Positions 35,263 through 54,086 of a DNA stretch of 64,000 nucleotides are shown here, one piece after another (within the stretch, counting starts at the first letter, position 1; each line of letters starts with the position of its first letter). Both the position numbers and the translations under genes were made by a program. The stretch covers positions 992,001 through 1,056,000 of the forward strand of contig NW_027191452.1 in the NCBI RefSeq assembly GCF_011745625.1. Direction: 5' to 3'. Under the pieces are notes generated by a model. The model ran no database searches. It saw only the letters and a list, made by a program, of their open reading frames with translations, and was not told the DNA's origin. The DNA is from Cladosporium halotolerans (taxonomy: Eukaryota).

Positions 35263-36393
35263 TCAATCCTCCCAGATCGTCTCCAAATCAAGATCCGCCC
35301 TCCTCTCGCCGCCGCAAACACTCCACCGCTTCCTCTCCCTGCCAGAACCGCCGTTCCGACCAAAGCCGAAGCCTCTCGGCACGTCCAGACTCCGCCGCCT
35401 CGGTCCGTCCTCCTCCTCGTCACTCTCCGCAATCAGCTTAAGTCGCTGTGAATCCTCCTCGGCGGCTTCGGACTCGAGATCGGGCACGTCCTCGATGGTG
35501 TCAAGGGAGCTGATAGAGGGCGAGCGGGAGCGGACTGAGGATGGAGTGGAGGAGATGGAGCTGAAGGAGCTGTTGCTGGCGTGGTGGTGGAGGGCTAGAC
35601 CGGAGGGGAATGCCTCGTTGTATTTCTGTGGACCGAGGCTGGGGCTGGAGGATGCGGAGCCGGAGCTCATGTTCAGAATGGTGTTCTGGTCGATCACGTT
35701 GGCGGGGAAAGAAGTCGGGGCCTGCTGCGCGTTTGTGGGCGCATTGGCGAAACTGTGCAGTGGTGAGGCGGGCCGGCGTCTCAGAGAGCCAGAGCGCGAG
35801 AAGGATGCACTTGCAGCTGCGGCAGGTTGTTGGCGGGGAGTGATATCCAGCTCGCTGTCCTCTTGAATGATCTCGATCGCCCCACCAGATGTAGCGGTGT
35901 TGTCATACCAGCTGGGCGACCGGGGAGGCGGTGCGTAGGCCTCTTCTTGTCCTGGCTTGAAAGGCGAGCGTACTCTCGCGGGCGAGCGGTGCGCCGGTGA
36001 GGGAGACAGTGAGCCGCTAGAAGGAGGGCTGGCAGACGATAGTTCGAAGGCTCGGTACGCTGAGTTTGCGGTAGGCAGGGAGTGTGCTCGGGCCATAGGT
36101 GGTGCTGCTAGCGGAGAGCCGCTGGAGCGAGATCGAAGGTGGGAGCGGGCGTAGGGGGATCGGTTGCGGTGGCTTGAGGTCGGGCGACTGGCGGGTGGGC
36201 TGGAGAAGTATGTCTGCAAGAGGGCGGCGGGCGAGGGTTCGGTGTGACTACGTGAAGAGTCTGGGCGGAGTTTAGGCAGGGCGTGTGCTATGTCCATGTC
36301 CACGGCGTGGGTGGGTGGTGTCGCAGGCTCTGCGGACTCGACGGAGCGGTAAGGCAGGGCCTGATCGGGGTTGTCGGGGCGGTTGTTGTGCAT
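35263..36393 (-). CDS. Conserved fungal disordered Ser/Pro/Arg-rich protein (about 376 aa) ending RKRWSVCGGERRADLDLETIWED
   Basis: First plausible ATG at 36393 (MHNNRP) within the 632-aa ORF. The compact C-terminal motif looks conserved. Start position is uncertain. Confidence 0.75.
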   Translation of the reverse strand: MHNNRPDNPDQALPYRSVESAEPATPPTHAVDMDIAHALPKLRPDSSRSHTEPSPAALLQTYFSSPPASRPTSSHRNRSPYARSHLRSRSSGSPLAAPPMARAHSLPTANSAYRAFELSSASPPSSGSLSPSPAHRSPARVRSPFKPGQEEAYAPPPRSPSWYDNTATSGGAIEIIQEDSELDITPRQQPAAAASASFSRSGSLRRRPASPLHSFANAPTNAQQAPTSFPANVIDQNTILNMSSGSASSSPSLGPQKYNEAFPSGLALHHHASNSSFSSISSTPSSVRSRSPSISSLDTIEDVPDLESEAAEEDSQRLKLIAESDEEEDGPRRRSLDVPRGFGFGRNGGSGRERKRWSVCGGERRADLDLETIWED

Positions 36394-38375
36394 GACGAGG
36401 GATGTGGGCGGTGTTTTGTGAGGAGTCGGGCCGCAGACCAAGCAGGGTTGTTTGGGTCGAGGAATGTGCCGGGGTCCAGAAGGATCGGGCTGCAGTGATG
36501 GCCAGCAACACTGAGCGACGCAGTCGGCGGGGGAATGAAGCGCAGTCGTAGGGTCGGGTTTGGTCGCAGAAAGGGGAGGGAGGGTGCAGCAGGGCGTGGA
36601 GGAGGGCGAATGGCAGACGGCAGGCGTCGCTGAGGCCGAATGGGATTGCAGGTGAGGGCAGAGGGTGCGAGGGCGGCGTGGACAGGCACTGACAGGCGAG
36701 ACAGGCAGACCCTGGGCGGGCGTGTGGAGACGGCGGCGCTGTAGGGCGGGCGATCGTCCCAAGCGCAGATGCAGATCGCACGCAGGTGTTTGCGGCGGGC
36801 GGCGGGATTGGTGCTTTGCTGGGGAGGACGAGAGGAGGGAGGCTGCACGCAGGGAGTGTTCGTGGATATAGCAAGCAGGCAATGCTCCTTCAGGCATCCG
36901 GCCAGGCAGTCCAGGCGACTGGCGGCCGAGGCGTTCTAGAGCCACCTGCACGCGCTCGCCGGCGCGGTGGGGCGATGGAAGACATGTGGCCTGCACCGCG
37001 GCGTAACGCACCCTCCTCTCCACGCCTGACTCGCCGTTTGCCTCGCAAAACGCGCCAGCCTCGTCTCGCCCGAGAATAGCTGCCGTCCTGCAATCATTCG
37101 AGCCATGCCTTGACCACACCTGGGCAGAGACTCCCCCTAACCGTGCACAGCATCGCCACAACAGACTTCATCTCCCATCCTTAACGACCGCACCGCAAAG
37201 ATCATCCACGCGCAGGTGACCACGGGCTCAGGCGGAGCATTCCCCAGAGAATCCACACGGGGACGGCGAGCGCTGCAGGAACCGCGTCTGCTGCGGGCCA
37301 CAACGGCGCCGCTCATCCACCCATCCATCGACCGGCAGCGCCTCCACTCGGCGCCACGCGCCTAAAGCGGCTGCATGGCCTCGTATGCAAACCATCTCTG
37401 CCCGGTGCCGGTTGCGGTCAATAATGCAGGTGCAACGCAACCCACATGCCGCCGTCAACAATGCCGGCGCGCTCAGCCTGTCAGCCGTCTTATTACCTGC
37501 ATTTGTGTCGCCAGATCTCAGCCTGCGGACGACCGTGACGTGACGTATGCTGAAATAACATCATGATAAACCAACGGCGTCGCCGCATCTCAAAACCGCC
37601 ACCAACGCTCGCCGATTACACTCTCCACGCGAAGCGTAAGCAAGCGGCAAACGCCTATAGCAATCTCTCCGCTATACCTACCTACGCCCCCGCGCGGCCG
37701 CTCGAAAGCGCAGCGATCTGCGACCGCCGTCGTGTAACCCGCTCCCCATAGGCTGCTTGCACACCTCACGGTCAGTGATCACTTCCTTGGCACGGCCTAC
37801 AACACCGACAGTCCGCCCTCGTGAACACCGCGCATGAACAGACACCCGACGGCAGGACTTCCTGTCTTCAGCCCTCGCGGCCGTGTCTCAGTCCGCCGGA
37901 GCACATGCTTCCCGGGCGCTGCCGCCGGCGGACGCGCAACCAGCAGCGTGAAAAGTCTGAATCGTGGGATGCGCTTCTTTGTCCCAACGGACGGGAGAGA
38001 GGGATGGAGCGGCTATTCGCGTTGCACAAGCTGCTTGCGTAAGGTACCTTGCCTGGCGTCTTTCGCAGCGCGGGACGGAGGGAGCCGGGTTTGCGTTTTC
38101 GCGACGATGATCGGCGTTCTGCACGACTTGTAGCGTGCCAGAGGGCGCGAGCGGTGAAGATGGGAGTTTGTATGGATACTTTGGGACTCGGGCGGAGTCT
38201 AAATCTCACGTGAAGACTGAGAGCGCGTTTTGCGAGATTGCAATTGTTCTCCAATGGCTGGGTGTTCTGTGCTATGGCTTCACACACTTCGTATTCAATT
38301 GACTTCACTTCTCCCAAAAGTCCACGCTCTACCCAGCAGCTGTCCGCCGACACCTCGTGATCGAGCGGGCTTCGC

Positions 38376-40469
38376 TCACTCCTCCAAAAACTCCACGCTC
38401 GAGTCGGCGCCGTCCGCCTCGTCGTCCCCGTCGTCCGCCCCGTCCAACCCGCCGACCGTCTTCCCTCCCCCTCCCAACCCCCCCACAGGCGCCTTCGGCA
38501 CCTCGTCCTCGAAAACCCACCCCTTCGCCTTCATGTCCCGCCACTTCCACGCGACCTTCAGCCGCAGCAGGTCGCCCGTCGCGACCGCGTCCTCGAGCGA
38601 GTCGTGGCCGCGGTCGCCGCCGGCCTGCACGTCGCGCTCGAGGTGCTTCTTCGCGAGGGCCTTGAGCCCGTTGCGGAAGGGCAGGCCGCGCGGGTGCGGG
38701 AACAGCAGGATCGTGTCGACGATGGCCGGGTGGCAGAGGCGCGTGGCGTTCAGGTCGTTCTCGATCGCGTGCCCGACCAGCGGCGTCGAGGGCGTGAGGT
38801 AGGCGCACAGCAGGGCGCGGGCGTCGGCGGGGGAGTCGACGATGGGCAGCGCTCCTGCGCGGGCGGACGCCGGGTCCCAGGCGGCGTGCGGGATGGCGGC
38901 TGCGAAGTGCTCGGGCCAGACGCCGGAGAAGCGGCTGTTGAGGTCGATGATTGTGCCGAGCGGGCGGACGAGGACGTCGAGCAGCGGCTCGTGGTCCGGC
39001 CAGCTGACGGCCGTCAGGCGGATGAGCTCGAAGCCGAAGGCGGTGTGGGCCATTTCGCAGTCGAAGCCGACGGCGCCGGGGACTCTGCCGTTGCGGTCTT
39101 TGGCTGGGCTGGGGTTGTCTGGGGTGGTGATGAAGGGGAGGACTGCGGCGAGGCGGGCTGGGCTGGTGGGTTTGAAGACGTGGTCCTCGGAGCTGGTGCA
39201 GCCTGGGGCGCCCACTTGCTCCATACAGCAAGGATAGTAAGGTTGGGTGCCGCCTGTGTAGTGGTCTGTTTTCTGTTTTGGAGGGAAGATTCTCTTGCTG
39301 GGGTGGTGCTTGCAAGGTCCGTTGGTTGTGAGCTTGCCCTCCTCGTTGCGGTCTGGGAAGACGCGGAAACGGGTGCCACAACGACTACATTCTTCGTAGT
39401 TCATGCTCATCTCGACCGCCTTGGCGGCTTCCTCAGCCTCTGCAGCAGCAGGTGGTACTGGGATGTACCCGTACTCAGCGAGTTTGCTTTGGTCGGAAAC
39501 AACAAGGAGCTGCGCAACTTGAACCTCTTGGGCAGAGGTGAGGCCTGTAATGATCGTCCTCCCCTCTTTCTTGGCCTGCGGTTTCGGGGCATTGTTGAAG
39601 AACGAATCCTTGACAATGCTGAGAAAAGCCTCCACCTTCATCTTACGGTATGCCGCGATGCGATTCTTAATGACGTTCGGGTACACTTTAGGCTGTTGGC
39701 GAGCCGCTTTCTCTTCTTCATCCAAAGCCAATTTGATGACCTCCTGATCACTAAGCGCATACATCTGCAATCGACCCGGTGGCACATTTTGAATCTGCTG
39801 AGTGCTTGATTTGAGCTCCTCGTTCAAGCGTACCATGTCTTTGTGGAGATGCTGAATGAAGACTGCACGCTTGGCGTGGGATTCAGGCGCGTTCGGCAAC
39901 ATTCGCGGATTCAATGATTCTTTCTTTTCAGGCGAAGCCTTTTTCAGCTCTGCGAGAGGGGTTGATGGGCTGTCGTTTGTGTTTGCTTCTTTCGGGGTTG
40001 GCTTCGCTCCAGCTCTCGGTGGCGGCGAGACTGGTCTGGAAAGGCTGGTGGGTGCATGCACCTTCGTTGCCTCCGGAGTCGCTGCTGCTTCGATGGAAGA
40101 CGACAGCGGCGAGCTCTTCGGTTCGCTTTTGCGAGACCTCTCTGCTTCCAGGTCCTCCTTGATCTTCTCGGCGCGGCTCAGTGGCTTGTCCGCTAGAGTC
40201 TCGTACGTGACTCGACGACGCTTTGCAACCGGCTCGGTGAGCCTGTCTGAGGACGCCTGTGGCTGAGTACGATCCCCGTCGGTTGCTCCATTCGATCCTG
40301 AGAGTGGCTTCTCTGGATTTGTGGTTGGAGTCAAAGTCGCTGCAGGCGTTGCCGATGTTTCGGCTGCTTGCAGCGCGGGCTCATGCCCAAAAATGCAGTT
40401 TGTGAGTTTGCATTGATCGCCTGCAGGGCAAGGCATGCTCTTGAAGAAAGTCGTGGTGGTGAATACCAT
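38376..40469 (-). CDS. REX3: RNA exonuclease 3 (DEDDh 3'-5' exonuclease with N-terminal CCCH-like finger)
   Basis: CPAGDQCKLTNCIFGH, CSRCGTRF..CKHHP..YPCC..GC..HVFK, then catalytic FDCEM, GHAIENDL and GHDSLEDA. Confidence 0.92.
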   Translation of the reverse strand: MVFTTTTFFKSMPCPAGDQCKLTNCIFGHEPALQAAETSATPAATLTPTTNPEKPLSGSNGATDGDRTQPQASSDRLTEPVAKRRRVTYETLADKPLSRAEKIKEDLEAERSRKSEPKSSPLSSSIEAAATPEATKVHAPTSLSRPVSPPPRAGAKPTPKEANTNDSPSTPLAELKKASPEKKESLNPRMLPNAPESHAKRAVFIQHLHKDMVRLNEELKSSTQQIQNVPPGRLQMYALSDQEVIKLALDEEEKAARQQPKVYPNVIKNRIAAYRKMKVEAFLSIVKDSFFNNAPKPQAKKEGRTIITGLTSAQEVQVAQLLVVSDQSKLAEYGYIPVPPAAAEAEEAAKAVEMSMNYEECSRCGTRFRVFPDRNEEGKLTTNGPCKHHPSKRIFPPKQKTDHYTGGTQPYYPCCMEQVGAPGCTSSEDHVFKPTSPARLAAVLPFITTPDNPSPAKDRNGRVPGAVGFDCEMAHTAFGFELIRLTAVSWPDHEPLLDVLVRPLGTIIDLNSRFSGVWPEHFAAAIPHAAWDPASARAGALPIVDSPADARALLCAYLTPSTPLVGHAIENDLNATRLCHPAIVDTILLFPHPRGLPFRNGLKALAKKHLERDVQAGGDRGHDSLEDAVATGDLLRLKVAWKWRDMKAKGWVFEDEVPKAPVGGLGGGGKTVGGLDGADDGDDEADGADSSVEFLEE

Positions 40470-41160
40470 GGTTGAAATGTTGATTGCGAACGCCTAGTGC
40501 GAGCACTTTGGTGAACAGGAGAGGGTGAGGGTGAGGGTGAGCTTGAGCTTTTGTTGTGGTGACAACCGACGCGCAGGCTTCACTTTCGAAAATGGCAGGC
40601 GCGACCTTAATCGAGAGTCATGGCACGATTTCACATGTCCAGGATAGATTTGCGGCCAGCTGCTCAAGCCGTGAGTGGCACGCTTGCAATCCTTATTCCA
40701 ATTGTTTTTGCACGTATTCGTGCAGCCAGCCGACCAGCTGACAGATCCGAACGATAGACCGTGGAAGGCCAGGCAAACGACCAAAACTCCGTATTGAATC
40801 GCCAGTCGATGGATTTGACCACGGAGTAGCTAAATACTGGCGTCACAAAACAAAGGCACGTGAAAGGGTCAGGCACTTGGCTAGCGGGAATGCGGTTCCT
40901 TGCATGCATCCACCGATGCCCCGGACCGGATCTTCGCGAAGGCGTTGACCCGCTCGCCGACCGCAGCCCTCGCGCTTGATTCCCTTCTGGCTCGTTGATG
41001 GCGTCATCTGGCCGGACTGCGAGATTCCCTATCGCTAACTCCGTCCGCCGCTAGGCTGCGACAAAATCTCCCACCTGCTATCATGACAGCCATATTACAG
41101 CAGCCTTCCGCGCAATTGCATCTGCCTCTAGCATATCATACACCCCTGCGATAGTCCACT

Positions 41161-47202: not shown

Positions 47203-47878
47203 TGCGATTGAGGGTGCTGTGTATGATGGTGATGGTATTTGCGTAGCTTTGGAGTGTTGGTTTGGAGAGGCGATGGTGGTAGGTAATGACAACGAGGCCG
47301 AGGAAATCTGTAGGGGCTATATGGCCTACTAACAATACTATTGGAAATTACAATACGACAATAGGATGCCTTTTCCGAAACACGGAGTCGGGGCATGCGT
47401 TTCAGGTGCAGAAGACTAAGTGAATAGCATGTGAGTAGAAGCTCTGATGCGCGCCAATCAGCTACCACGAATCGTCGAGCCTTCAACGAGCAAGGGCCTC
47501 AAAGTGACGTCGTGAGAACACCCGTGTCACTCCTAACATGGAGCCATTGAGAAGGGTACGTTGCAAATCGCCACTCAGACAAGTACGCTGGTGTCCGGGG
47601 CCAGGCTTATTCCCAAAAGGGCGGTTCCTCGAATAGAAGCCCGCTATTTTAGGCCTTGTGAGATACCGTATGCGCATGCTGAAAGGATTGGAGAACTTCG
47701 TTCGAGAAAGATAAAGTATGTTGGTACTCTAATGGGGAACTTGCAATCTGCATGCTAAATGTATCGAAAGAAAATCAATCCCTCTTGGAACGTTCCCGAT
47801 ATGCCAACCCCATTATGGTTCCCCAAGTATTCCGAACTCCGACGCAAATGCGAAAGGCATCTCAAAAGCAGGCCGGCA

Positions 47879-50152
47879 TCATCGTGAAATAGCCTGACGT
47901 TTACTTCTGTCCGTGTCCGGCAAGTACAGAGGCATTGGTGACTCGGGAGGCGTGAGCATCGGATCATTGGGCTCGTAGTGACAGGAGAAGAGGCAAGGCC
48001 TGTCCTCGATCGGTGGCGGAGTCAGAGGGAATTCTGCCGGAACGTGGAATTCCAGCACCTTCTTGCTCGCGCGGGTATCGCCGTTGAGATGTCCGTTCGC
48101 CATCGTCCCTTTGATCTCGGCCATGACAGAAGCCCGAAGACTCGCCAGTAGACTTTCCTCTGCGCGCAGTCTGTAAATGTCCACGTTGTCGAAGTCCGAT
48201 GTCTCTTCTTCGTCTGGGCTTGCAATGAGGCGACGGTGAGTCGCGAAGCGCAGCGGCGTGCTTGCGACCTTGGTTTTGCGAACAAAGTCGAAGCGTCGCG
48301 TATGGTAACGAGTGGAGCGCGGCGACCAGAAGTCTTTACTCATCTCAGCCAGCTCATTCGCTCGCGCGGCCGCGAGGGCCGAGAGGGAAAGATCGACATT
48401 GCGTTTCCAATGGCCTTGACGGACGATGCCGTCTTTGAGGAGGATGGCGACATGGCTCGTGATGTATTCGTCGAGCTCGGCTCCAGTCCCGGGGAAGATG
48501 AAATCGATAAGACCCAATCGGCGGGCTTGCAAGGGGCTCATGGGTAACATCGCTGTTAACATGTTCCTCGCAGCTGCTTCGCCACATCGGCCGTGGTAGG
48601 AAATGGTATGATACTCCGATCCATAGAGACCGACGGCGCGATAAGCAGGGTTGAGAACGACTTCCGCTCCTGCGATGACAAAATCGCAAGCTGTTGCCAG
48701 TGCCACGCCACCTGCAGCAGCGTTGCCTCTCATAGCTGCGACGGTGAGGATGTTGCGAGATGGAAACTCATGCAAGAGGTACTGCACGACATCATCAATG
48801 CGATTGATGTTGAGCCAGGACTCTTGCGCTGGGTCTACAGCTGCTTCGATGACGTTCAAGGCAATGCCGTTGCTGAAATATGAGCCACCCATCAACACAA
48901 CAGCACGAATGCTGTCATCAATAGCTGCTTGGTTCAAGATGTAGTCCATCGCTTCAATAAGTCTGGAACATTGGCTTGTACTCATAGCTCCGTTGTAGAA
49001 CTCGAAGTGGAGGTAGGCGGTCTTGTTGAGGTATTCGTCAACAGCAAAGCGCACCCAGACTTCTTGTTGAGTACTTCCTAGTGTCGGAGCGAAATTGGCA
49101 GGAGACGAGATGGTAAGCTCGTCGACGATGTCAGAGCTCAGTATACCCATCTCCATGAGACCCGAAACAGCTGGAACTTTGGGCCAAAGTGACTTGTCGT
49201 TCTTGGTCTTGGGCCGACGAATGTGAGAAATCCAGACACCCTTACCGTCAGCCGCAGAGATGCAGACGGCACCATCACGGACGGCCAAGAGCTTGGTAGA
49301 AGTCTTGTTCAGAGTGATTGACCTCACATCTCCCAGTGTGTCGTCGATCAGACCACCGTACAGGTACACATTGGGGCCGAATATTTTACTCATGGTGCCC
49401 GGCTGTGAATCTGCACATCTAATGCGACGAGAGATCTGCTGAGCGGTGTGTCGGGTAGTATCGAAGCTGGCAAAGGATGCTCGCAGAAGAGGCCTGACGT
49501 GCGTGGCACCGCCTTGAAACGGAGTGCGGTCGGAGACAGACAACTGTCCATACTCGGGCTTGGCCTTCAAACCGGGACCGTAAGGCTCAAGAAACCTTTG
49601 ACCTTGTTTGAGTGATGATGAGGCCTGCTCGATACGCTGAATAGCTGCCAGTGTTGCCGCAATCGCTGCTTGAGTGACATCACCTCGATAGAGAGAGGAC
49701 TTGGTCAATTTCGGGTCGTTGATGTTCACTGAGAACTGATCGAAGGCCCAGATTGGCCCAGCGTCGAACTCTTCAATTGCTTGTAAAACCGTCACCGCCC
49801 AGTGCGACCGACCAGTCGAGAGGGTCCCTTCTTCGAAACGTCGCAGTAGAATCGCAGGGTCTTCGATGGACCCGTCGTCTCCCAAAAGCAACCATTCGAT
49901 CGAACTTGGACCTGCATCCCCAGGCGCTCCTGGGTGAACGATGAGGGTCATGAAGTTTTCATAGATCTCCTTTGGTACTAATGTGGTAAGGAAAGGACAA
50001 AGGACAAGGTCAGGTTTGGCGAGCGCCACAGCCTCCAGCATGATGTCGTCAGATAGCGCATACTCGATGGTAACTTCGTGAGACCTCGAAAGAGCAAGGT
50101 AAAGGCGTTGCGAAAGTGAGTTGTGCGCCGTGCACAGAAAGAGGATCTTCAT
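47879..50152 (-). CDS. hypX: HypX/HoxX-like protein: N10-formyl-THF formyltransferase domain + enoyl-CoA hydratase/crotonase domain (757 aa, intronless)
   Basis: MKILFLCTAHNSLSQRL start, IVHPGAPGDAGPSSIEW, VTVLQAIEEFDAGPIWA, KSSLYR, IRCADSQPG, FYNGAMSTSQC, FSNGIALN, NAAAGGVALA and LNPAYRAVGLYGSEY, all characteristic of HoxX/HypX. Confidence 0.9.
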   Translation of the reverse strand: MKILFLCTAHNSLSQRLYLALSRSHEVTIEYALSDDIMLEAVALAKPDLVLCPFLTTLVPKEIYENFMTLIVHPGAPGDAGPSSIEWLLLGDDGSIEDPAILLRRFEEGTLSTGRSHWAVTVLQAIEEFDAGPIWAFDQFSVNINDPKLTKSSLYRGDVTQAAIAATLAAIQRIEQASSSLKQGQRFLEPYGPGLKAKPEYGQLSVSDRTPFQGGATHVRPLLRASFASFDTTRHTAQQISRRIRCADSQPGTMSKIFGPNVYLYGGLIDDTLGDVRSITLNKTSTKLLAVRDGAVCISAADGKGVWISHIRRPKTKNDKSLWPKVPAVSGLMEMGILSSDIVDELTISSPANFAPTLGSTQQEVWVRFAVDEYLNKTAYLHFEFYNGAMSTSQCSRLIEAMDYILNQAAIDDSIRAVVLMGGSYFSNGIALNVIEAAVDPAQESWLNINRIDDVVQYLLHEFPSRNILTVAAMRGNAAAGGVALATACDFVIAGAEVVLNPAYRAVGLYGSEYHTISYHGRCGEAAARNMLTAMLPMSPLQARRLGLIDFIFPGTGAELDEYITSHVAILLKDGIVRQGHWKRNVDLSLSALAAARANELAEMSKDFWSPRSTRYHTRRFDFVRKTKVASTPLRFATHRRLIASPDEEETSDFDNVDIYRLRAEESLLASLRASVMAEIKGTMANGHLNGDTRASKKVLEFHVPAEFPLTPPPIEDRPCLFSCHYEPNDPMLTPPESPMPLYLPDTDRSKRQAISR

Positions 50153-52306
50153 GTTGATCGATGATGTAGAGGCGTAAGAAGATGAGGTCTGATACAACAG
50201 TCCTAAGGACTTGGAGCTTGCAGATGAGGAAATCGAAGATCAGCGAGCGTGAAAGGGGTTTAAATTTTGGTCTGGGACTCGGCCGCGAGATACGTCCAGG
50301 ACCAGCGAGATTCCGCAGACACTCCACATATGTCAGAATAAGGCAAAATTGCTCGGCAACTCAGATATACACTGAGTCTCGTGGTTGCCTTGTGCCGTTC
50401 CAGATCGCCGATTCAAAGGTTGATTCAAGCAAAGTATCGAATACGTACTAACATGGACTCCATCCCCGGGAGACACACGGGGACCTAGTCCCGTAGCGTT
50501 GTGTATCTCGCAGCTGCAAAGGCGAACAGGAACGATAGGCCTGGGCCCATGAGGCAAAAAAGGCGACACTGAGGACAGGAGTCAACATGTGAGATTTTTG
50601 CAGAAGTGCTACTTCCCATGCTCGTGTAATTGCAGCAGGTGTTACAGTTGATGCCTTCGTAGTTCGTGCTAGGCACGATATGTCCAGGCTCGAAGGTCGA
50701 CGCATTTGACCGACGCGTCGATGAGGTTTACGATCGAACATCAGATCGAAGTGTGCATTGCCGGACGGATCGGCCGTGTGCGCTTTCATCGCTGATGTTT
50801 CAAGATTTCATGGAACGTGACCTTCGGCCATATTCAGAGTTCTCATCGCGTTGACCCACGTGTCCAGAATTCGTGCGATGGCCTTCGCTGAGCCTTGTGC
50901 GTTGTGATATTCAGGTGAGCCCTCGGTGAGAACCTAGACAAATGCCGATGATATGGCCAGTATTAGAAGAAGACGCACAAAGTCCCTGATGGCATCGCCA
51001 CACATGCTCGGTGTCGTCGAATGATCGCCCCGAAAAGGGCAATGCGGCAAAAGGAAGCGATTGGAAGACGTGGTATCTTGATCTGGCTGGACTCCCTATC
51101 AAGTATCCGGAGTACAATTGGGGTCCTTGCATCGTGAAAGGTGAGCATGTGGACACCTGGGAGTGTCACTGCGGACCAGACCTAACTCGAAAGGCTTCGA
51201 CCGGCATGGACAAGCAGCGGAAAGGTGTTCCCCGATAGCACTATGACCTGGTGGTGTGGTGGGTTGATCGCCTCATTTCGACCAGAACACGGAAGGTGTA
51301 GGATGGCTCGCATCCTACCAGAAATGTGTCATGGCTGGGTATCATACTCGACTCTGACTACACGGAGCTCGAGCGGTAGGTTTGACGCAGTATGTCTCAT
51401 ATGTAGCGCTATTCCAACAACGGCTCCGACGAGTATGTTTGACCTTGCTATCCGATCATTCAGCAAGCGAAAGGAATAGCGGTGGTGGTTGGAATGCGCT
51501 GGTTCCCATGTCGTGGAACTGGAACACGGTGGCGAATCCGGCCTGGATGTCCCAGTCAAAAGCTGAGTTGCGAATTCTAGGTGAGAGTACCAGGCGTCTT
51601 TCGTGTCCATTGCGCGTGAGCCTCCGCCCTCACGAAAAGCAGAGAGTCGAGCAAGTTTTTGCGTGTTCGTAGGAGTGTGGTGGTGGTGGCTGAGGTTGTC
51701 AGTCGTCTGCCTCCCCCACACTCTTCTGCTGCACATGCCCTGCAGCCGACGCCTTGTGGGCTGGGCTGCGGTCAACACGCGTGGCCAAGGGGACATTCGA
51801 AAGTAAGACGTGGTTGCCTTCAACATCTTGGTTCTCCGGAGCTGCTCGAAGGCGAGATATTGATAGTCTCCAATACCTTCCAGAACATACGGCCAAGATT
51901 CGTAGAATCATCTGGCATTGCGATGGGACCGCGGCCATTTGCCAACATCCAGCGAAACTTGGTTCTGTGTGGCGGTCAAACTTGAACAACACATCCAAAT
52001 TGCAACCATACCTCTTCTCACTGTGTGAGGTCGGCGAGCCTCGGCTTCGATTGAGGAATGGCATCTTCAGCATGTGACAGTGTTACCACCGCGAGGGCCG
52101 CCATAGAATGACGCGAGTGATGCCTTGATTTCTTGGACTCCCAAGCTTCCGAGGCCCGTCACGATCGAGGATTGTGGACGTAAGAACTGGAAGTGATCGA
52201 TTGATGCGCTTCGGCATGTATGCAATATGTATTATGTAATGATCCATCATTTGTTAAATCATCGCTCGAACGCTCAACCATAGTCGCTGGAAACATAATC
52301 TTAACT

Positions 52307-54086
52307 TCATTTACCATCGAAAGTCTCCGCCTGTGTCGTGACTCCATGTTTCCTGTCGACCGATGTTCTGCTCCCATTGACACTCTCCGTAAACACGTCG
52401 ACCTCAGTCGACGCAAACTTCCTCGCACTAATCCTGCGCTCGAACAGCAGGTCCATCTCTGCGAACGTGCGACCAGCGGGCTCAGGCAGGCGGAAGTAGG
52501 CGTAGATGATGCAGCAGAAGCAGATGCCGGCCCAGAAGAAACCGGCGTAGTTACCCCAGTTCCATGCGCTGGGGTTGAGCATATACGGCGTGAGGACGCT
52601 GTTGATGATTGCGACCACGTTATAAGCGTTTCTGCCCAAAACGACGGTCTTGATCTGTAGTCGTCGGGTAGACATCTCGGCTACGAGGCTGTAGCAGACT
52701 GTACCAACTGTGAGCTGGTAGACGAGAGCCCAGACGATCATCATACTGCCAGTCGCGATAGCGGAGGAGTCGCGCTGCGAATCGGGCGTTAGACCGAGGA
52801 AGCCCATTATGAAGAGCATGATGCATAGGCCGCAGAGACCATAGACGTATAGAGAGCGGCGGCCAAGCCCGAAGGTCATGAGAAACCAAGCGCCGAATAC
52901 GCCAACCATGTTGATAGCGTATTGACCCATGGCGAAGGAGTAAGACGACTTCTCGTCAAGGCCGGCCTGCTGAAGGAAGTATGTGGAATAATTGCTGAAA
53001 CTGTTGCCGCTGAGGTTTTGAATTGCCCAGGTCATACAGACAATTTCGGTCCTCCGGAGGTCGATGCCTTTGAAACAGTCGAGGTACGAAGCACCACTTG
53101 TGATCTTCTTTTCCAGCGTCGTCGTGTGCACCATCATAGAGATCGTCTCATCTGCGTCGAAGTCGGTCTCGCGGTTCAAACTTGTCAAGCGGAGAAGGGA
53201 TTTCTTTGCGTCTGCGATGCGACCCTTGCGGACAAGCCACCAAGGAGATTCGGGAGCGAATGCAATGCCGAGACCCAGGGGTAGGGGCCACATCCACTGC
53301 AAAGCGAAAGGGATTCGGTAGGCCCAGTGGTCGTGGCGGTCCAGCATTGCTCTGATCACGCCGATCGCGATGAGCTGACCAAGACCCCAGCAGAAGTTGA
53401 CGTAAGTGGTAAGGTAGCCTCGAAGTGCGACGGGGCATCTGTCAGATGATTAGCATACCTGCTCATGCCGTGTTCGATGCATGGATGACTTACACTTCTG
53501 ACGCATAAGTGACAGTGAGAGTCTGGAACACACCCCAAGGGATGCCGCACAGGATCTCTGCCACTAATAGTGTTTGGACGTTCTGTGCCGTGAAGAAGAT
53601 TGCCGTGAAGCCCGTGATCAAGACCAAGCAGCCAAGCACCGTGTACTTGTATCCGAGACGCTCAGAGATGATACCGTTCATGAACAGACCAATGATTTCG
53701 CCCACATTGGCACCGTTAGAAAGACCCGCTTGCCATGCAGCAGGAATCTGCCACGAGCCATCTGGCTGCTGGACGCCGAACTTCTCGTTGAAGGCCTGGA
53801 AACCGTAGAGATTGTTGATGAGGGCGATATCGAACCCCTCCATAACGATCAGGGTAGAGATCAAAACCGACCAACCGATAGCTTTCGGGTACAGCTTGAT
53901 GCCTTGCAGAAGGGTCATACTTTGTTCTTTCTCGGTGGCGGACTTGGCGTTGAGCATGGTTTCCGTTTTGATGTTGTTCGGCTCCAGCTCGTCGCCAGTG
54001 GGCACCCTCGAAGGCGCTCCATAGTTCTCAACATCACTATTCGTGGTTTCGTGGTTGGGCTGGGCACGCCCGGCCAGGTCTGCCAT
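52307..54086 (-). CDS. MFS sugar porter, maltose/alpha-glucoside permease (MAL31/MalP-like; intron 53493-53439)
   Basis: LYPKAIGWS..MEGFD, GIPWGVFQTLTVTYASEV|CPVALRGYLTTYVNFCW, PESPWWLVRKG, RRTEI and ISARKF. First ATG at 54086 (54101 is GTG). Confidence 0.93.

Follow-up and report, generated by a model that had tools for sequence, protein, structure and literature searches.

A HypX/HoxX-type protein of the fungus Cladosporium halotolerans, its relatives and a possible role apart from hydrogenase

The HypX-type gene and its protein

The window analysed here, a 64,000-nt stretch of the Cladosporium halotolerans genome (contig NW_027191452.1), carries on its minus strand a complete gene for a protein of the HypX/HoxX type, which we call fungal HypX (P0001). 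HypX of Aquifex and Cupriavidus necator supplies the carbon monoxide (CO) ligand of O2-tolerant NiFe hydrogenases. In the review PMC12134894, HypX is described as moving the formyl group of N10-formyl-tetrahydrofolate (N10-formyl-THF) to coenzyme A (CoA) and decarbonylating the formyl-CoA to CO in vitro. The gene and the parts of its product are as follows, with the basis of each assignment in brackets.

47879..50152, minus strand: complete intronless open reading frame (ORF) of the fungal HypX/HoxX type, 757 amino acids plus stop (ORF list, translation, homology, model)
49202..50152, minus strand: N-terminal formyltransferase-like half, residues 1-317, a Rossmann-type subdomain followed by a Formyl_trans_C-like barrel (phmmer 1-177, sub-threshold Pfam matches, Foldseek)
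48227..49066, minus strand: half with the crotonase (enoyl-CoA hydratase/isomerase) fold, residues 363-642 (Pfam ECH_1, phmmer 228-642, model)
49802..49882, minus strand: fungal-clade insert, residues 91-117, with a helix modelled confidently at 99-107 (gap in the Aquifex alignment, 23-sequence alignment, model)
47882..48226, minus strand: C-terminal tail, residues 643-757, without a counterpart in Aquifex HypX (alignments, conservation, model)

The frame at 47879..50152 is a single ATG-to-stop ORF without an internal stop on translation. The stop-to-stop frame extends just 29 codons 5' of this ATG, none of them an ATG, and in the alignment the position of the start methionine is common to the query and its fungal relatives. 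Specifically, 98 of the 121 fungal sequences (the query and the 120 relatives listed, 52-97% identical, a set to which all fungal residue counts refer) have an NSLSQR motif starting at residue 11, matching both the query and Aquifex HypX, and we therefore take the start codon to be correct. Because the protein aligns end to end with its orthologues, the gene is also taken to be intronless. The chain begins directly at strand 1, like that of Aquifex HypX, and has no N-terminal presequence.

A first-pass annotation, made from the letters of the window, had described an intronless ORF of 757 amino acids with the two domains of HypX. This description is borne out by the uninterrupted translation and by a phmmer search of the PDB, in which Aquifex HypX/HoxX (6J0P) matched at E 4.2e-92 over both halves (query stretches 1-177 and 228-642); in the same search, E 2e-10 was the best value for a plain crotonase (1UIY). 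The Pfam model ECH_1 (PF00378) matched residues 395-591 at E 3.4e-19, with 69.6 bits against a cut-off of 27, whereas Formyl_trans_C (PF02911) matched residues 235-317 at E 5.7e-4 and, with 20.5 bits, stayed below its cut-off of 21.1. Since the Pfam matches of the N-terminal half are sub-threshold, its kinship with formyltransferases is drawn from the homology with HypX and from the structural match to FDH, ArnA and FMT domains. Among NCBIfam models, only generic crotonase models were matched, all far under their cut-offs (best 56.8 bits against 300), and no HypX-specific model was found.

An AlphaFold2 model based on an 84-sequence alignment had a mean predicted local distance difference test score (pLDDT) of 91.8 and a predicted template modelling score (pTM) of 0.89, with the last ~35 residues disordered. 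When the PDB was searched with Foldseek, the top eight entries were all Aquifex HypX, with target-normalised template modelling (TM) scores of 0.89-0.91 and root-mean-square deviations of 3.8-4.1 A; FDH hydrolase domains and crotonases came next, each covering a single half. The two-domain likeness to HypX is far beyond chance. Compared with HypX of Aquifex aeolicus (PDB 6J0P and 6J1E-6J1J) and of C. necator, the domain order is the same, the fold agrees at the TM scores given above and no extra Pfam domain is present, but the fungal protein is just 31-33% identical to Aquifex HypX. Like monofunctional crotonases, its C-terminal half scores as ECH_1 above the Pfam cut-off; unlike them, it is fused to a formyltransferase-like half and has the Tyr/Glu active-site pair of HypX.

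The 27-residue insert 91-117, which follows a GD.GP loop, is absent from Aquifex and bacterial-type sequences, and a second fungal insert at ~177-215 is poorly conserved and not present in solved HypX. The tail starts with an acidic DEEE..FD stretch, continues as a long, confidently modelled helix (657-686) and ends in a low-confidence segment with an F-S-C-H-Y type motif found in some relatives; across the 121 fungal sequences its conservation drops from 0.60 to 0.03, and pLDDT is <50 from residue 723. A Pfam scan of 12 long fungal-clade proteins revealed no additional domain.

In PMC6802093 (Muraki et al. 2019), the formyl-transfer triad of Aquifex HypX is given as His74/Asp80/Asp109 and the decarbonylase pair as Tyr416/Glu426 (Tyr439/Glu449 in C. 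necator, where mutation of the pair led to a HypX-minus phenotype), and CoA is described as contacted by R9, Q15, R131 and R542 at its 5'-diphosphate and by S194, Q195 and N306 at its 3'-phosphate. Through a HMMER alignment to Aquifex HypX, the PDB chain of which bears a 20-residue tag, these residues were mapped onto the fungal protein; family-wide counts come from the 84-sequence alignment.

49934..49936, minus strand: His73, equivalent to Aquifex His74; H in 118/121 fungal sequences (2 gaps, 1 Tyr) and 81/84 family-wide
49916..49918, minus strand: Asp79, equivalent to Aquifex Asp80; D in 119/121 fungal (2 gaps) and 82/84 family-wide
49763..49765, minus strand: Asp130 (EEFDAG), equivalent to Aquifex Asp109; D in 121/121 fungal and 81/84 family-wide
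48641..48643, minus strand: Tyr504, equivalent to Aquifex Tyr416 and C. necator Tyr439; Y in 121/121 fungal and 83/84 family-wide
48614..48616, minus strand: Glu513, equivalent to Aquifex Glu426 and C. necator Glu449; E in 121/121 fungal and 80/84 family-wide
49403..49408, minus strand: Ser249-Gln250 (ADSQPG), equivalent to Aquifex Ser194-Gln195, CoA 3'-phosphate tether; S in 119/121 and Q in 121/121 fungal
48992..48994, minus strand: Asn387 (FYNGAMS), equivalent to Aquifex Asn306, CoA 3'-phosphate contact; N in 120/121 fungal

The His/Asp/Asp triad, the Tyr/Glu pair and the Ser-Gln and Asn contacts to the 3'-phosphate of CoA are the same as in Aquifex HypX, and two of the 5'-diphosphate contacts, Q15 and R156 (Aquifex R131), are also kept. 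Departures at the five catalytic columns were seen family-wide in eight representatives, all of which group with bacteria in the FastTree tree described below. The first-pass annotation had named the codons of the formyltransferase residues (H at 49934-36, D at 49916-18 and the D of EEFDAG at 49763-65), all of which a codon check confirmed, and on alignment with Aquifex HypX, a check it had proposed, all five catalytic residues were aligned and present. It had also reported the crotonase motif with its Tyr and Glu, which is intact, but its coordinates needed a small change, as 48611-48643 codes for YRAVGLYGSEY and the complete PAYRAVGLYGSEY occupies 48611-48649. The spacing between Tyr and Glu, one residue shorter than in Aquifex, was considered as a possible defect and dismissed, as it is common to many bacterial members. 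Judged by sequence, fold and active site, the protein is a clear member of the HypX family that lacks linkage to hyp/hox genes in the window and has clade-specific additions.

In the THF pocket, one residue differs, Aquifex K59 aligning with L58; Leu56 aligns with Leu55 and Tyr108 with Phe129. These positions bear on an alternative in which the protein is an enzyme of formyl-CoA or another acyl-CoA with a new substrate: it might provide formyl-CoA as a formyl donor, it might decarbonylate formyl-CoA produced by oxalyl-CoA decarboxylase or 2-hydroxyacyl-CoA lyase, or its crotonase half might act on a different acyl-CoA, leaving the folate site vestigial or regulatory. The fungal-specific inserts (91-117 and ~177-215) and tail, the Pfam formyltransferase N-domain falling under its cut-off and the L58 that aligns with K59 are in keeping with such an enzyme, and from the inserts, the tail and the long stem of the fungal clade we conclude that an altered substrate or regulation is possible. 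However, the triad is kept in 118-121 of the 121 sequences, as a vestigial site would not be; Leu55, aligned with Aquifex Leu56, lies in a column at least 90% conserved in both the 23- and the 84-sequence alignments, and the aromatic Tyr108 aligns with Phe129; and in PMC6802093, HypX is described as keeping CoA as a prosthetic arm, with no release of acyl-CoA. We consider a new substrate improbable.

Genomic setting and signs of transcription

A HypX of the hydrogenase-maturing kind would be expected to accompany hyp/hox genes and a NiFe hydrogenase, whereas fungal HypX lies among housekeeping genes with no hyp/hox neighbour in the window. Scanning 43 long ORFs besides HypX across the 64 kb revealed no hyp, hox or hydrogenase family, in agreement with the first-pass annotation, and no secondary-metabolite cluster. 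The neighbours include genes for an alpha-amylase, Rua1_C, a CCCH zinc finger protein, UAA transporters, EB1, PTR2, a forkhead/FHA protein, a DUF676 esterase, PTPA, Use1, a two-exon sugar transporter, a bromodomain protein and a WD40 protein; the identified neighbours are eukaryotic. Elsewhere in the window, at 35266-40493, the G+C content is 0.60-0.64, and long frames on both strands (634, 705 and 482 aa) have no Pfam match.

In a metagenome scan, four close (67-68% identical) and two distant (40-45%) fungal-type loci were found among the 80 kept. At two of them, L081 and L084, whose HypX is 68% identical to the query, the sugar transporter gene adjoins the orthologue, and L081 also has the bromodomain gene; in total, the transporter recurs at two of these metagenome loci, the bromodomain gene at one and the downstream genes at none, and they hold no informative conserved partner. 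The adjacent sugar transporter is ~90% identical at L081 and L084, against 68% for HypX, which suggests that HypX evolves much faster with its active-site residues still kept.

These data bear on the possibility that there is no working fungal gene at this locus and that the ORF stems from contaminating bacteria, was inserted recently by horizontal transfer or is a relic in decay. The gene is intronless and none of the listed sequencing runs is recorded as RNA, as would be expected of such an artefact. However, eukaryotic genes lie on both flanks, one with a spliced intron; the ORF has a GC content of 0.54 and, at third codon positions (GC3), of 0.59, like its neighbours (GC 0.54-0.59); in metagenome contigs from relatives with 68% identity, the transporter and bromodomain genes again adjoin the orthologue; and the ORF is full-length, with all catalytic residues and with orthologues across Ascomycota and Basidiomycota. 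In addition, a search of 185,579 prokaryote species genomes gave 601 candidate stretches, of which 594 code for a relative, and the best 80 of these 594, from many phyla, share just 32-38% identity with the query. That the locus is a contaminant or the product of a chimeric assembly, which the first-pass annotation had also thought unlikely because of intron-containing neighbours, is not credible in view of the neighbours, the GC content and the synteny in relatives, and the probability that no working gene is present is negligible.

Four sequencing runs were aligned to the window, and parts without coverage were given no weight. In one of them, X2, which derives from a close relative, a contig (depth 58.7) skips 55 bases by joining 53438 to 53494. 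The skipped segment, 53439-53493, ends in CT..AC on the plus strand, that is, GT..AG on the minus strand, and is the intron of the sugar transporter gene, so that this run holds spliced RNA from a relative. Contigs of X2 also cover 47778-50050 and 50106-51687, with 95.6-97.4% identity over the HypX ORF and no joint inside it, and an adapter-like loose end lies at 47778, ~100 bases past the HypX stop. These contigs are a weak sign of an unspliced HypX transcript in a close relative. The second of them, 1.58 kb long, takes in the start codon of HypX together with 1.5 kb upstream of it, and may represent a long 5' leader or an unannotated transcript; the minus-strand ORFs 50448-50789 and 51329-51907 within or near it have no Pfam match.

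Distribution and descent

Hundreds of public genomes contain fungal HypX, annotated with an automatically assigned name. A word-indexed protein search gave 6636 proteins at E <= 0.001 among 8000 candidates, and ~40 of the 120 listed rows carry an organism name, all of them ascomycetes; those among the matches listed include Cladosporium (68-69%), Zasmidium, Zymoseptoria, Cercospora, Fulvia, Colletotrichum, Orbilia and others. Eight of the matches listed had been named automatically as hydrogenase maturation factor or HoxX, as the first-pass annotation had suspected for similar fungal proteins. When the search was seeded with P0146, a divergent relative, the matches with names included basidiomycetes, and each of the three subphyla was represented (Cutaneotrichosporon, Kwoniella, Cryptococcus amylolentus, Rhizoctonia, Ustilago, Sporisorium, Tilletia, Melampsora and Cronartium). 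An exhaustive profile-free search gave 2071 representatives at E <= 1e-3, 290 of them at E <= 1e-30. Outside the fungi, a search seeded with P0182 found relatives in animals (Hypsibius, Bradysia, Nematostella, Oculina, Branchiostoma, Trichoplax and Rotaria) and in Ceratodon, Calypogeia, Chara, Plasmodiophora and Ascophyllum, many of them auto-named 'HoxX-like'.

In a FastTree tree of 149 rows, all 13 named fungal rows fell into a clade of 37 rows (support 100), opposite all 29 named bacterial loci, with weak support (39) for the deep split. A second, unrooted tree was made with IQ-TREE (LG+C20 PMSF, quick search, SH-aLRT support only) from 63 rows picked for names and spread out of ~440 proteins and 29 translated loci, the remainder being excluded; one row, L026, came from a genome flagged as unpublished, and no result depends on it. 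Here the fungal clade had 16 rows with support 100, five of them without an organism name, and was joined by the unnamed P0159 (98). It divided into a basidiomycete half (7 rows, support 88), holding all four rows named as basidiomycetes, and an ascomycete half (9 rows, support 98), holding all seven ascomycete rows including the query. All 22 named bacteria, with three unnamed rows, formed a bacterial clade (98), and 21 rows (17 labelled and 4 unnamed) formed a clade of non-fungal eukaryotes (97), with cnidarians, amphioxus, Trichoplax, a tardigrade, a moss, Chara, a brown alga, a rotifer and Plasmodiophora.

The split into a basidiomycete and an ascomycete half shows that fungal HypX has descended vertically from the ancestor of the Dikarya and did not arrive recently from bacteria. 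The first-pass annotation had supposed a bacterially derived enzyme repurposed in a fungus and had proposed a phylogeny to see whether the fungal sequences nest within bacteria; they fall outside every sampled bacterial group, and with a best bacterial identity of 32-38% a bacterial derivation is not upheld. The fungal and non-fungal eukaryote clades share one side of a single branch, starred in the tree, apart from the 22 named bacteria, and with a root placed within the bacteria, the eukaryotic HypX sequences would all share one origin. Within the non-fungal clade, the tardigrade Hypsibius and the fly Bradysia group with moss, liverwort, Chara and Plasmodiophora, not with the cnidarian/amphioxus/Trichoplax group, which may reflect gene transfer, assembly contamination or poor resolution.

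The non-fungal eukaryotic proteins have the same architecture and catalytic residues as fungal HypX but form a separate clade without the fungal inserts, and several are fused to FolD, whereas the fungal protein is fusion-free. Most of them carry N-terminal extensions of 20-110 residues rich in Arg, Ser and Thr (P0189, P0321, P0309, P0180, P0327, P0155, P0235 and others), which look like mitochondrial presequences. Judging from the N-termini on both sides, the fungal enzyme is probably cytosolic and the other eukaryotic ones are probably mitochondrial.

Proposed function of the fungal enzyme

We know of no NiFe hydrogenase in ascomycetes or in fungi at large, nor in the non-fungal eukaryotes that bear HypX. 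For the fungal protein we infer the substrate, the release of CO, the cytosolic location and the physiological role from its likeness to HypX. The N-terminal half, through His73/Asp79/Asp130, would load the formyl group of N10-formyl-THF onto the thiol of a tightly bound CoA; the formyl-CoA arm would then swing by way of a cavity inside the protein to the crotonase half, to be decarbonylated there by Tyr504/Glu513, giving CO, free THF and regenerated CoA. The product in the fungus would be free CO or, equivalently, the redox-neutral removal of surplus folate formyl groups, and not a NiFe ligand; binding to HypC/HypD is not expected. A functional two-step enzyme of the HypX type, probably cytosolic and acting without a hydrogenase, is the reading to which we give somewhat better than even odds. 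In the fungus, the HypX reaction would then be uncoupled from any hydrogenase; between CO supply and formyl disposal, sequence cannot decide.

Two associations found in other members of the family strengthen this proposal. FolD-type methylene-THF dehydrogenase/cyclohydrolase makes 10-formyl-THF, and we found HypX fused to its two domains, THF_DHG_CYH and THF_DHG_CYH_C, in 14 relatives (8/8 scanned and 6/19 scanned: P0327, P0378, P0299, P0331, P0334, P0317, P0338, P0371, P0215, P0224, P0193, P0181, P0221 and P0226), of which those with an organism name come from Ascophyllum, a brown alga, and Rotaria, a rotifer; two fused rows cluster with the bacteria. The FolD part lies C-terminally in 13 of the fusions and N-terminally in one (P0226), suggesting that the fusion arose more than once.

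The second association concerns bacteria. A match to PF00374, the NiFe large subunit, was present in 38 of the 45 bacterial genomes behind hypX loci and absent from seven (Peribacillus huizhouensis, Marinomonas transparens, three Nocardia isolates and two metagenome-assembled genomes (MAGs)). In five of these seven, a gene for a protein with an MHYT domain, of the gas-sensor (CO-sensor) type, directly adjoins hypX, the neighbour in Peribacillus encoding MHYT-PAS-GGDEF-EAL. The MHYT genes beside hypX are as follows, in the coordinates of each locus.

L014, 11736-14156: MHYT gene beside hypX
L057, 9167-9967: MHYT gene beside hypX
L063, 11854-12693: MHYT gene beside hypX
L073, 11741-12565: MHYT gene beside hypX
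L075, 11764-12642: MHYT gene beside hypX

Searching with tblastn placed an MHYT-like gene within ~1.8 kb of hypX in 15 of 80 loci from Actinomycetota, Bacillota and Pseudomonadota, the further matches being in L005, L012, L023, L028, L036, L041, L047, L049, L052 and L056. In PMC11347149, the MHYT domain of CoxC is reported to respond to CO; a literature search gave no co-mention of MHYT and HypX among the matches listed. Both the fusions with FolD and the MHYT genes beside hypX in bacteria without a PF00374 match lend weight to a putative role in CO production or in the disposal of one-carbon units, as the first-pass annotation had proposed.

A different outcome of the same first step is suggested by the likeness of the N-terminal half to the hydrolase domain of FDH/ALDH1L1 (4QPD, 2CFI and 1S3I; Foldseek E 1e-13 to 1e-14). 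According to PMC6802093, this domain shares the His/Asp formyl-transfer residues, and the formyl group goes to a phosphopantetheine thiol. As proposed for the fungal enzyme, FDH takes formyl groups out of the folate pool, but it passes them to an arm bound to acyl carrier protein and oxidises them to CO2 with NADP+ in an aldehyde-dehydrogenase domain; in fungal HypX the partner is a crotonase domain, CoA is held non-covalently, and Asp79 stands where the FDH triad has Ser, as in HypX. Fungal HypX might then be an overflow valve of one-carbon metabolism, its crotonase half hydrolysing formyl-CoA to formate and regenerating THF in the manner of PurU or FDH. Crotonase-fold enzymes include thioester hydrolases, the FolD fusions would suit any role that consumes 10-formyl-THF, and the fungal clade has diverged along a long stem, all of which, with the resemblance to FDH, is compatible with a formate valve. 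However, the Tyr/Glu pair, mutation of which made C. necator HypX-minus, is invariant in 121 of 121 fungal sequences, and the MHYT neighbours in hydrogenase-less bacteria point to a gas rather than to formate. We regard the formate valve as unlikely, though to be kept in mind.

Several observations weigh against a HypX-type reaction in the fungus, or against the support drawn for it. Compared with Aquifex HypX, the fungal protein has two inserts and a 115-residue tail, and its clade has a long stem, 0.83 changes per column. Formyl_trans_N (PF00551) matched at E 0.013, with 15.7 bits against a cut-off of 26.1. Two 5'-diphosphate contacts differ, Aquifex R9 being Ala and R542 Lys in the query, although Ala and Lys are the family majority at these columns (57/84 and 65/84) and, in PMC6802093, an Aquifex quadruple mutant at the 5'-diphosphate contacts still bound CoA. 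The FolD fusions and MHYT neighbours occur in lineages other than fungi, and a PF00374 non-match in the draft genomes and MAGs among the seven is no proof of absence. The X2 contigs give no level, strand or true ends of a transcript, and carry-over of DNA is possible. Finally, a literature search, with most subscription journals outside its coverage, found no functional study of fungal or eukaryotic HypX, and the first-pass annotation had likewise known of no functional description. Two names met in that search are unrelated or uninformative, namely 'hypX' in PMC4374905, a typing variant of hmgX in a tyrosine cluster, and HoxX in PMC5491491, an entry in the reference list only.

A wider form of the HypX reading extends beyond the fungi. 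HypX-type enzymes may be a eukaryote-wide, haem-independent source of CO from the folate pool, with CO as a deliberate signal or respiratory modulator, cytosolic in Dikarya, probably mitochondrial elsewhere (cnidarians, amphioxus, placozoans, mosses and algae) and in some cases fused to FolD, the same chemistry feeding MHYT sensors in hydrogenase-less bacteria. We put this forward tentatively, as a view that is possible but has somewhat less than an even chance of being right.

The HypX family and its chemistry are known; what appears to be new is a fungal form with no hyp/hox genes in the window and with clade-specific additions, the function of which would be readily testable. To our knowledge, no other enzyme is known to form CO from 10-formyl-THF, and descriptions of HypX have been confined to its part in hydrogenase maturation in aerobic bacteria. 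That Ascomycota and Basidiomycota have kept an intact copy under purifying constraint, and that animals, plants and protists have a sister clade, implies a further job for this chemistry, unrelated to hydrogenase, for which the candidates are the endogenous production of CO without haem oxygenase and the redox-neutral release of surplus formyl groups from folate. Independent predictions that can be checked follow from the fusions with FolD and from the hypX-MHYT pairs. If true, either job would extend eukaryotic one-carbon metabolism by a reaction and give a gasotransmitter a new source.

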